From: an uncultured Actinomycetota bacterium
Lineage (GTDB): Bacteria > Actinomycetota > Humimicrobiia > Humimicrobiales > Humimicrobiaceae
Assembly: GCA_964556165.1 (NCBI GenBank)
Contig: CAZKVH010000005.1
Span: forward strand, 1,269-65,268
Length of the DNA: 64,000 nt
Direction of reading: 5' to 3'
Shown: positions 44,938 through 45,108 of the stretch, piece after piece
Position numbering within the stretch: position 1 is the stretch's first letter
Layout: the number at the start of each line of letters is the position of its first letter
Notes under the pieces: generated by a model
Databases searched by the model: none
Seen by the model: only the letters and a program-made list of their open reading frames with translations
What the model was told of the DNA's origin: nothing
Program-made: the position numbers and the translations under genes

Positions 44938-45108
44938 TTACAAACTATTAACTATAGATTGAAAAACTGAATGTAACTTATCACCAAGCGCAGACACTAC
45001 TGTAATAGAAACAATAACAACAAGAGCTAAGTAAAGAGCTATTTCTATTAACGTAGTTCCCTTTGAGTTAAAAAACATTTTTTTTAAAAGATTTTGGACC
45101 AATTTCAT
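44938..45108 (-). CDS. flp: Flp-family type IVb prepilin (56 aa; below ORF-track length cutoff)
   Basis: Manual translation gives MKLVQNLLKKMFFNSKGTTLIEIALYLALVVIVSITVVSALGDKLHSVFQSIVNSL. It has the Flp motif (G/TTxIEYAL-hydrophobic stretch) with a predicted TadV cleavage after Gly17. Sits directly upstream of tadC. Confidence 0.75.
   Translation of the reverse strand: MKLVQNLLKKMFFNSKGTTLIEIALYLALVVIVSITVVSALGDKLHSVFQSIVNSL

Follow-up and report, generated by a model that had tools for sequence, protein, structure and literature searches.

Small prepilins of Tad pili, for which a size of 50-80 aa serves as a criterion, carry the processing motif G/XXXXEY (PMC4322843). The Glu-Tyr pair of this motif has been held invariant in Tad pilins (PMC9531140), as has Tyr6 (PMC10710030). 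Small "Flp pilin-like proteins" that lack Tyr6 were described from Gram-positive tad loci by Imam et al. in 2011 (PMC3244431), who also proposed a TadE-like structural subunit for some Gram-positive tad loci. In actinobacteria, the normal gene order is tadC and then flp (PMC4322843, PMC9531140): in M. tuberculosis, for example, Rv3660c..Rv3654c correspond to tadZ, tadA, tadB, tadC, flp, tadE and tadF (PMC9531140). The gene for the prepilin peptidase, tadV, is typically unlinked in these bacteria, and the tad pilus of M. luteus serves DNA uptake (PMC4322843).

The DNA analysed here, a stretch of 64 kb that we refer to as the window, contains a tad operon of this kind, in which a small gene, flp, lies with tadA, tadB, tadC and tadE. 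In operon order, its genes are as follows.

49787..51172, minus strand: 461-aa protein with a long extension at the N-terminus and, at the C-terminus, a weak ParA/CpaE-like P-loop (KGGVGST; weak matches to Pfam AAA_31 and CbiA).
48979..49794, minus strand: cpaB/rcpC-like SAF-domain protein, 271 aa (Pfam ChapFlgA and SAF; NCBIfam pilus_cpaB, E 2.9e-5, sub-threshold).
48105..48947, minus strand: CpaE/TadZ-like ATPase of the ParA/MinD type, 280 aa (Pfam CbiA and AAA_31; NCBIfam CpaE_hom_Actino, E 5e-6, sub-threshold).
46934..48136, minus strand: tadA/cpaF secretion ATPase, 400 aa from the listed TTG start (Pfam T2SSE, E 3e-34).
46026..46832, minus strand: tadB platform protein, 268 aa (Pfam T2SSF, E 1e-11).
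45193..46029, minus strand: tadC platform protein, 278 aa, in conserved synteny (Pfam T2SSF, E 7e-13).
44938..45108, minus strand: flp, Tyr6-less Flp-like prepilin with a predicted 17-aa leader, MKLVQNLLKKMFFNSKG, and a 39-aa mature pilin, TTLIEIALY...VNSL.
44436..44861, minus strand: tadE-type minor pilin of 141 aa that itself carries a class III signal, G/SVFVE (Pfam TadE, E 6.7e-15).
43710..44327, minus strand: 205-aa protein without a family match, acidic in one region and with a transmembrane segment at the N-terminus (27-84% identical across related loci).
42465..43700, minus strand: 411-aa protein with an N-terminal transmembrane segment or signal and the repeats WVDTSHW / WVDTSYT.TQGYWENYT (45-82% identity, in nearly all loci).
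42032..42484, minus strand: TadE/TadG-like protein, 150 aa, without Glu5 (Pfam TadE 22.7 and Tad 20.1 bits, both just below cutoff).

The initial annotation had placed the pilin gene directly upstream of tadC. On the coding strand we found it instead immediately 3' of tadC and 5' of tadE, and this position between the two genes is kept in 39 of 39 related loci. The first gene of the operon, encoding the 461-aa ParA/CpaE-like protein, is conserved in position in related loci, and the last, the TadE/TadG-like gene, in synteny; the same gene order recurs in the 39 related genomes wherever the contig is long enough. TadA matched the TadA-family model TIGR03819 of NCBIfam at E 1.6e-55, below that model's cutoff, and is called as 394 aa in the JGI data. 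The closest genomes are metagenome-assembled genomes of uncultured Actinomycetota, together with two records labelled "uncultured bacterium", one labelled "bacterium" and one labelled Atribacterota, while a Phycisphaerales record gave a weak match only. The Atribacterota label belongs to a metagenome-assembled genome that carries the operon (L010, CAYOLB010000183.1) and is probably an inconsistency of binning or classification.

We found no A24 prepilin peptidase (Pfam Peptidase_A24) among the multi-TM ORFs of at least 100 aa in the 64-kb window; these ORFs encode PlsY, a Na/H exchanger, a 7TM-HD protein and TadB/TadC. The lack of a tadV gene in the window fits the actinobacterial habit of keeping tadV unlinked (PMC4322843). 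Similarly, the operon contains no secretin (RcpA/CpaC) and no TadD, which is what one expects of a monoderm, a cell that lacks an outer membrane. The host is presumably such a cell, an uncultured member of the low-GC Actinomycetota.

Several further features of the operon and its surroundings stand out. The cpaB-like gene is flanked by two genes of the ParA/MinD P-loop type, encoding the 461-aa and 280-aa proteins, so that a single operon has two TadZ/CpaE-like ATPases; both genes are conserved in related loci. The 411-aa WVDTSHW-repeat protein, whose gene lies between tadE and the one for the TadG-like protein, is matched by no Pfam or NCBIfam model; it may be a pilus component or an adhesin specific to the clade. 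The 205-aa protein evolves fast (27-37% identity in most relatives, versus 50-75% for neighbouring genes); it contains an acidic, repeat-like region in which EEGNEI occurs twice, is missing from some loci, and likewise has no Pfam or NCBIfam match. The G+C content is 27-30% across approximately 42000..54000, comprising the tad operon and its upstream neighbours, versus 35-43% in most other DNA of the window. Finally, genes of toxin-antitoxin type bracket the operon: a Phd/YefM antitoxin gene on one side (51323..51670, plus strand), and Gp49/HigB-like and HTH genes on the other (41339..41978, minus strand). The tad region is compatible with an acquired "colonization island", yet its udg and asnC-like neighbourhood is syntenic in related genomes.

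The flp ORF itself occupies exactly the interval that had been proposed for it, 44938..45108, on the minus strand: it begins with ATG, has 56 codons and ends with TAA, and its 56-aa product is MKLVQNLLKKMFFNSKGTTLIEIALYLALVVIVSITVVSALGDKLHSVFQSIVNSL. As the initial annotation had stated, the gene was missed by the ORF track, and the 60-aa cutoff was the sole reason for its omission. Its description as unannotated holds for that first-stage track but not for public data, since the exact protein is present in NCBI and in JGI/IMG; on JGI contigs of samples 3300031351 and 3300031369, flp has already been called and bears a weak Flp_Fap tag. Two features within and next to the ORF bear on its translation and processing.

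45114..45120, minus strand: Shine-Dalgarno sequence AAGGGAG, 5 nt 5' of the Met1 ATG of flp.
45058..45060, minus strand: codon for Gly17, the invariant Gly at the boundary and predicted -1 residue of a prepilin-peptidase site (G|TTLIE).

A check for a ribosome-binding site had been suggested both upstream of position 45108 and upstream of an internal Met, proposed as an alternative start. Upstream of Met1 the check succeeded, with AAGGGAG 5 nt before the ATG; ahead of Met11 there is no Shine-Dalgarno sequence, merely a run of A. We also evaluated Met11 against the homologues, in which position 11 is Val or Ile, and rejected it in favour of Met1. A start that has a Shine-Dalgarno sequence and yields a 17-aa leader was recovered in 23 of the 39 related loci, and GGAG-like motifs precede the equivalent flp start in related loci. 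From the sequence comparison we thus prefer Met1 as the probable start of translation and regard Met11 as disfavoured. A consensus scan of the tadC-flp and flp-tadE spacers gave no convincing promoter or terminator, the sole terminator-like hairpin being located within tadE. Neither spacer gave a sign of structured RNA (fold z-scores -0.42 and +1.42), and Rfam returned no match across 41000-52000 at E <= 0.1.

Homologues of the Flp protein, 10 in all in metagenome gene catalogues, are 64-98% identical to it, and relatives are encoded at the same operon position in 39 species-representative genomes. An exact DNA search of a further metagenome contig collection with a 40-mer from the mature-pilin coding sequence gave 0 matches, as these contigs are not part of that collection. 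We assessed selection across these sequences by the Nei-Gojobori method (780 pairs). The segment comprising Gly17 and the mature pilin is subject to strong purifying selection across the 39 genomes, with a pN/pS of 0.16 and synonymous change saturated (pS = 0.75). For the 16 codons before Gly17 pN/pS is 0.78, indicating relaxed selection on the leader. Mean pairwise divergence in flp is 0.595 at third codon positions versus 0.073 at second positions. Together, the low pN/pS, the saturated synonymous change and the divergence by codon position exclude a chance ORF, and confirm that flp is a real, conserved gene.

We next consider the family to which its product belongs. A search with the Pfam Flp_Fap model (PF04964), which had been named as a check, gave a significant match (E 2.6e-5) whose score of 24.3 bits nevertheless lies under the gathering cutoff of 32.2 bits. 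The match spans Flp residues 14-55 and profile positions 4-45 of 46, and the model was matched by all 11 clade members examined at E <= 0.01 (best 3.3e-8). By the gathering score alone, then, the window Flp falls outside the family. In the reciprocal direction, a profile of the clade retrieved 1073 proteins at E <= 1e-3 from 1.84 billion representative proteins; among the 150 best of these 1073 matches, 135 are classical G-x4-E-Y Flp pilins of 50-90 aa, showing that the clade profile finds bona fide Flp pilins. At 56 aa and without a globular C-terminal domain, the protein is also within the size range of small Tad prepilins, and its gene lies in a tad locus.

The initial annotation had described the Flp signature as a Gly followed by an IEYAL-like hydrophobic helix. 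The Gly, the Glu at +5 and the hydrophobic helix are all present, but Tyr6 is replaced: Flp retains Gly-1, Thr2 and Glu5, and has Ile at +6 instead of the canonical Tyr. Thus, the full G/XXXXEY motif is lacking, and elsewhere in the clade position +6 is Ile, Leu or Met. A Tyr is found at +9 in the window clade. Among the 150 best relatives, the combination of an absent Tyr6 and a retained Glu5 occurs only in this clade and in one other protein (P0154, with Val6 and Phe9), while a further protein (P0100) lacks both Tyr6 and Glu5. The missing Tyr6 may plausibly explain why the Pfam score stays below threshold. With a prepilin site, Glu5, no Tyr at +6 and a location in a tad locus, the window protein corresponds to an "Flp-like pilin"; because such proteins were already described by Imam et al. 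(PMC3244431), a Tyr6-less Flp falls in a known category of variants. These comparisons support the assignment of Flp as an Flp-family prepilin, an ordinary member of a known family. The possibility that a longer or different pilin gene exists elsewhere in the window had also been raised. A six-frame motif scan recovered only flp and the adjacent tadE: these are the only 2 ORFs in 64 kb that combine a G-x4-E motif with a hydrophobic stretch.

The sequence at the predicted cleavage site is ...NSKG|TTLIE, which has the features of a class III signal, namely a basic leader ending in Gly-1 and a Glu at +5. Neither Gly17 nor Glu22 varies across 11 proteins and 39 loci. The two sides of Gly17 differ sharply in their conservation: the segment after it is always 39 aa long and near-invariant in 39 genomes, while the leader before it varies among relatives in sequence and in length (14-48 aa). 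The family profile matched the mature chains of Caulobacter PilA (8u2b and 8u1k) with E values of 2-3e-4, placing residue 1 of PilA (Ala1) at position 18 and Glu5 at Glu22; the C-terminal LG-x-L-x2-F segment also aligned with Caulobacter PilA. Processing between Gly17 and Thr18, as proposed at the outset, is supported by this alignment of PilA residue 1 with Thr18 and by the break in conservation at Gly17, and we conclude that the prepilin is probably cut after Gly17. The mature Flp would then be 39 aa and 4141 Da (4.14 kDa). In an AF2 model (pLDDT 78), Flp forms a short leader helix, a loop at residues 14-19 and one continuous helix at residues 20-55, without a globular domain, as in Tad pilins. 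A Foldseek search of this model against the PDB gave 0 matches; a single helix is uninformative in such a search.

We propose that a Tad (type IVc) pilus is very probably built from Flp as its major structural subunit, with the Flp leader removed by an unlinked TadV and the mature pilin polymerised by TadA/B/C. Other readings of this small gene deserve consideration. An ORF of only 56 codons could in principle have arisen by chance in the AT-rich intergenic DNA between tadC and tadE, as a G+C content of 30% favours stop-free hydrophobic stretches. The selection analysis refutes this reading, whose probability we consider negligible: besides the pN/pS of 0.16, third-position divergence is 8-fold above that at second positions, homologues occur in 39 genomes, and both length and Shine-Dalgarno sequence have been conserved. 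Alternatively, Flp might be a small membrane peptide with a regulatory or accessory function, neither cleaved nor polymerised, that resembles Flp pilins through its hydrophobic helix alone. The sub-threshold Pfam score, the lack of a nearby peptidase gene and the tendency of hydrophobic helices to produce spurious profile matches would all be in keeping with such a peptide. The similarity to Caulobacter PilA, however, extends beyond hydrophobicity to Gly-1, Thr2, Glu5 and LG-x-L-x2-F, and classical Flp pilins were matched at E 1e-6 to 1e-8 among 1.84 billion proteins. Moreover, the conservation break falls exactly at Gly17, and the tadC-flp-tadE arrangement holds in every locus. We therefore regard an uncleaved peptide as very improbable.

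Somewhat less remote, if still improbable in our judgement, is a role for Flp as a minor or accessory class III pilin, in a filament whose main component is the TadE-type protein of 141 aa or some other subunit. Tyr6 is absent from Flp, the processing of Tyr6-less Flp-like proteins is described as unproven (PMC3244431), and TadE bears a canonical G/xxxxE signal; each of these points would suit a TadE-based filament. Yet the proposals of a TadE-only filament concern loci that have no flp, and in the window flp is present at the canonical position. Its mature segment is also the most conserved protein segment of the operon, while the neighbours drop to 40-60% identity, and the protein encoded at the same position in M. 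luteus has been identified experimentally as the major pilin (PMC4322843). These observations favour Flp as the major subunit.

If Flp is the major pilin, the pathway would run as follows. The 56-aa prepilin, translated from Met1, would be inserted into the cytoplasmic membrane by its hydrophobic helix. An unlinked aspartyl prepilin peptidase of the TadV type would cut after Gly17 and remove the basic 17-aa leader. The all-helical mature pilin, of 39 aa and 4.1 kDa, would then be lifted from the membrane and polymerised by the TadB/TadC platform, driven by the TadA ATPase. Priming of the filament would fall to TadE and the TadG-like protein, as minor pilins, with CpaB and the two ParA/CpaE-like ATPases assisting pilus assembly. 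The pilus may serve in adhesion or in DNA uptake.

Comparison of the window with its closest relatives revealed a short region of strain variation at the start of flp.

45067..45223, minus strand: 157-bp strain-variable patch that runs from the final codons of tadC through the tadC-flp spacer into codons 4-14 of the flp leader; it holds 28 of the 32 differences from contig L001.

This contig (12.1 kb, from JGI sample 3300031331) is 99.7% identical to positions 40688..52784 of the window, with the patch at L001 7562..7721. The flanking proteins of the two are 100% identical, except for the 461-aa CpaE-like protein (99%). The Flp proteins, in contrast, are 88% identical: there are seven changes, all of them in the leader, and the DNA encoding the mature pilin is identical. 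Among 7 contigs from one JGI sample series we found two haplotypes of the patch. One contig (L045) differs by approximately 2% in the flanks and yet carries the window-type patch, and the alternative allele thus looks like a short imported recombination tract. The related loci compared contain no donor for it. Contigs L002 and L044 both break at the same point in tadC, approximately 490 bp upstream. We evaluated whether the patch is a general hot spot and rejected this, because across 12 other close pairs of loci divergence in the corresponding 170 bp did not consistently exceed that of the flanks. The patch was likewise rejected as a switch of the invertible or A-specific (DGR-like) kind, since its two alleles run collinear with each other and differ by substitutions of every type. 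We read the patch as a probable one-off gene conversion rather than a hot spot.

A more speculative reading concerns the missing Tyr6 and, separately, the patch. In the Caulobacter pilus, Tyr6 is positioned beneath the N-terminus of the next subunit. It is conceivable, if doubtful, that the Tyr6-less clade, with Ile, Leu or Met at +6, an aromatic residue at +9 and a mature pilin of 39 aa, builds a Tad filament of different register or packing. If so, these would be among the smallest pilins known and would form a structural subtype confined to low-GC Actinomycetota. It is likewise conceivable that the 157-bp patch reflects selection on the expression or processing of the pilin rather than neutral gene conversion.

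With flp identified, the annotation of the Tad pilus operon is complete in this actinobacterium, an uncultured organism from sediment. Once again, an ORF cutoff of 60 aa is seen to lose Flp pilin genes systematically; tad loci should therefore be checked for an ORF of 50-80 aa, whether in the tadC-tadE gap or at the locus head. A well-populated clade, represented in at least 39 species-level genomes, is added to the Tyr6-less "Flp-like" pilins, which have been little studied; this shows that Tyr6, although called invariant in Tad pili, is dispensable in nature. The extremely conserved 39-residue mature pilin offers a compact test case for the minimal needs of a pilin. The window flp is nonetheless a routine gain in annotation, and the current understanding of Tad pili is unchanged. 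The interpretation from which we began was essentially correct, and our analysis corrects it on three points: where the gene lies with respect to tadC, which Met is the start, and how the motif reads at Tyr6.

When set beside known Flp/Fap pilins (Caulobacter crescentus PilA, 8U1K/8U2B; Aggregatibacter actinomycetemcomitans Flp1), the window Flp shares their small size, a basic leader with Gly as its last residue, Thr2 and Glu5, a hydrophobic run of some 20 residues, the LG-x-L-x2-F C-terminus, a single helix and a tad locus with TadA/B/C/E. Unlike them, it has Ile at +6 (Ile, Leu or Met in the clade) and Tyr at +9. Its mature part, at 39 aa, is rather short compared with 45 aa for Caulobacter PilA and a median of 42 aa for the retrieved relatives. 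The locus differs from classical Flp loci in that flp follows tadC rather than standing at the locus head, and in that secretin, TadD and tadV are absent.

The locus also resembles actinobacterial tad loci, with sub-threshold NCBIfam matches to the actinobacterial models TadE_Rv3655c and CpaE_hom_Actino. We compared the window with M. luteus tad-2 (flp, Mlut_18170), M. tuberculosis Rv3660c-Rv3654c (flp, Rv3656c) and Bifidobacterium breve tad2003. The Flp proteins of these loci keep the Glu-Tyr pair and are 68-77 aa long, and the window Flp shares neither property. The window locus has, in addition to what these loci contain, the CpaB/RcpC-like gene, the second ParA-like gene and the genes for the 205-aa and 411-aa proteins, and its host belongs to a low-GC (about 30-40%) uncultured lineage, in contrast to the high-GC actinobacteria. 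The "Flp pilin-like proteins" of Imam et al. (PMC3244431) come from Firmicutes and cultured Actinobacteria, and most of their loci include tadV, unlike the window locus. The window Flp is likened to these proteins by definition rather than by sequence identity: like them, it is small, is encoded in a tad locus and has no Tyr at +6.
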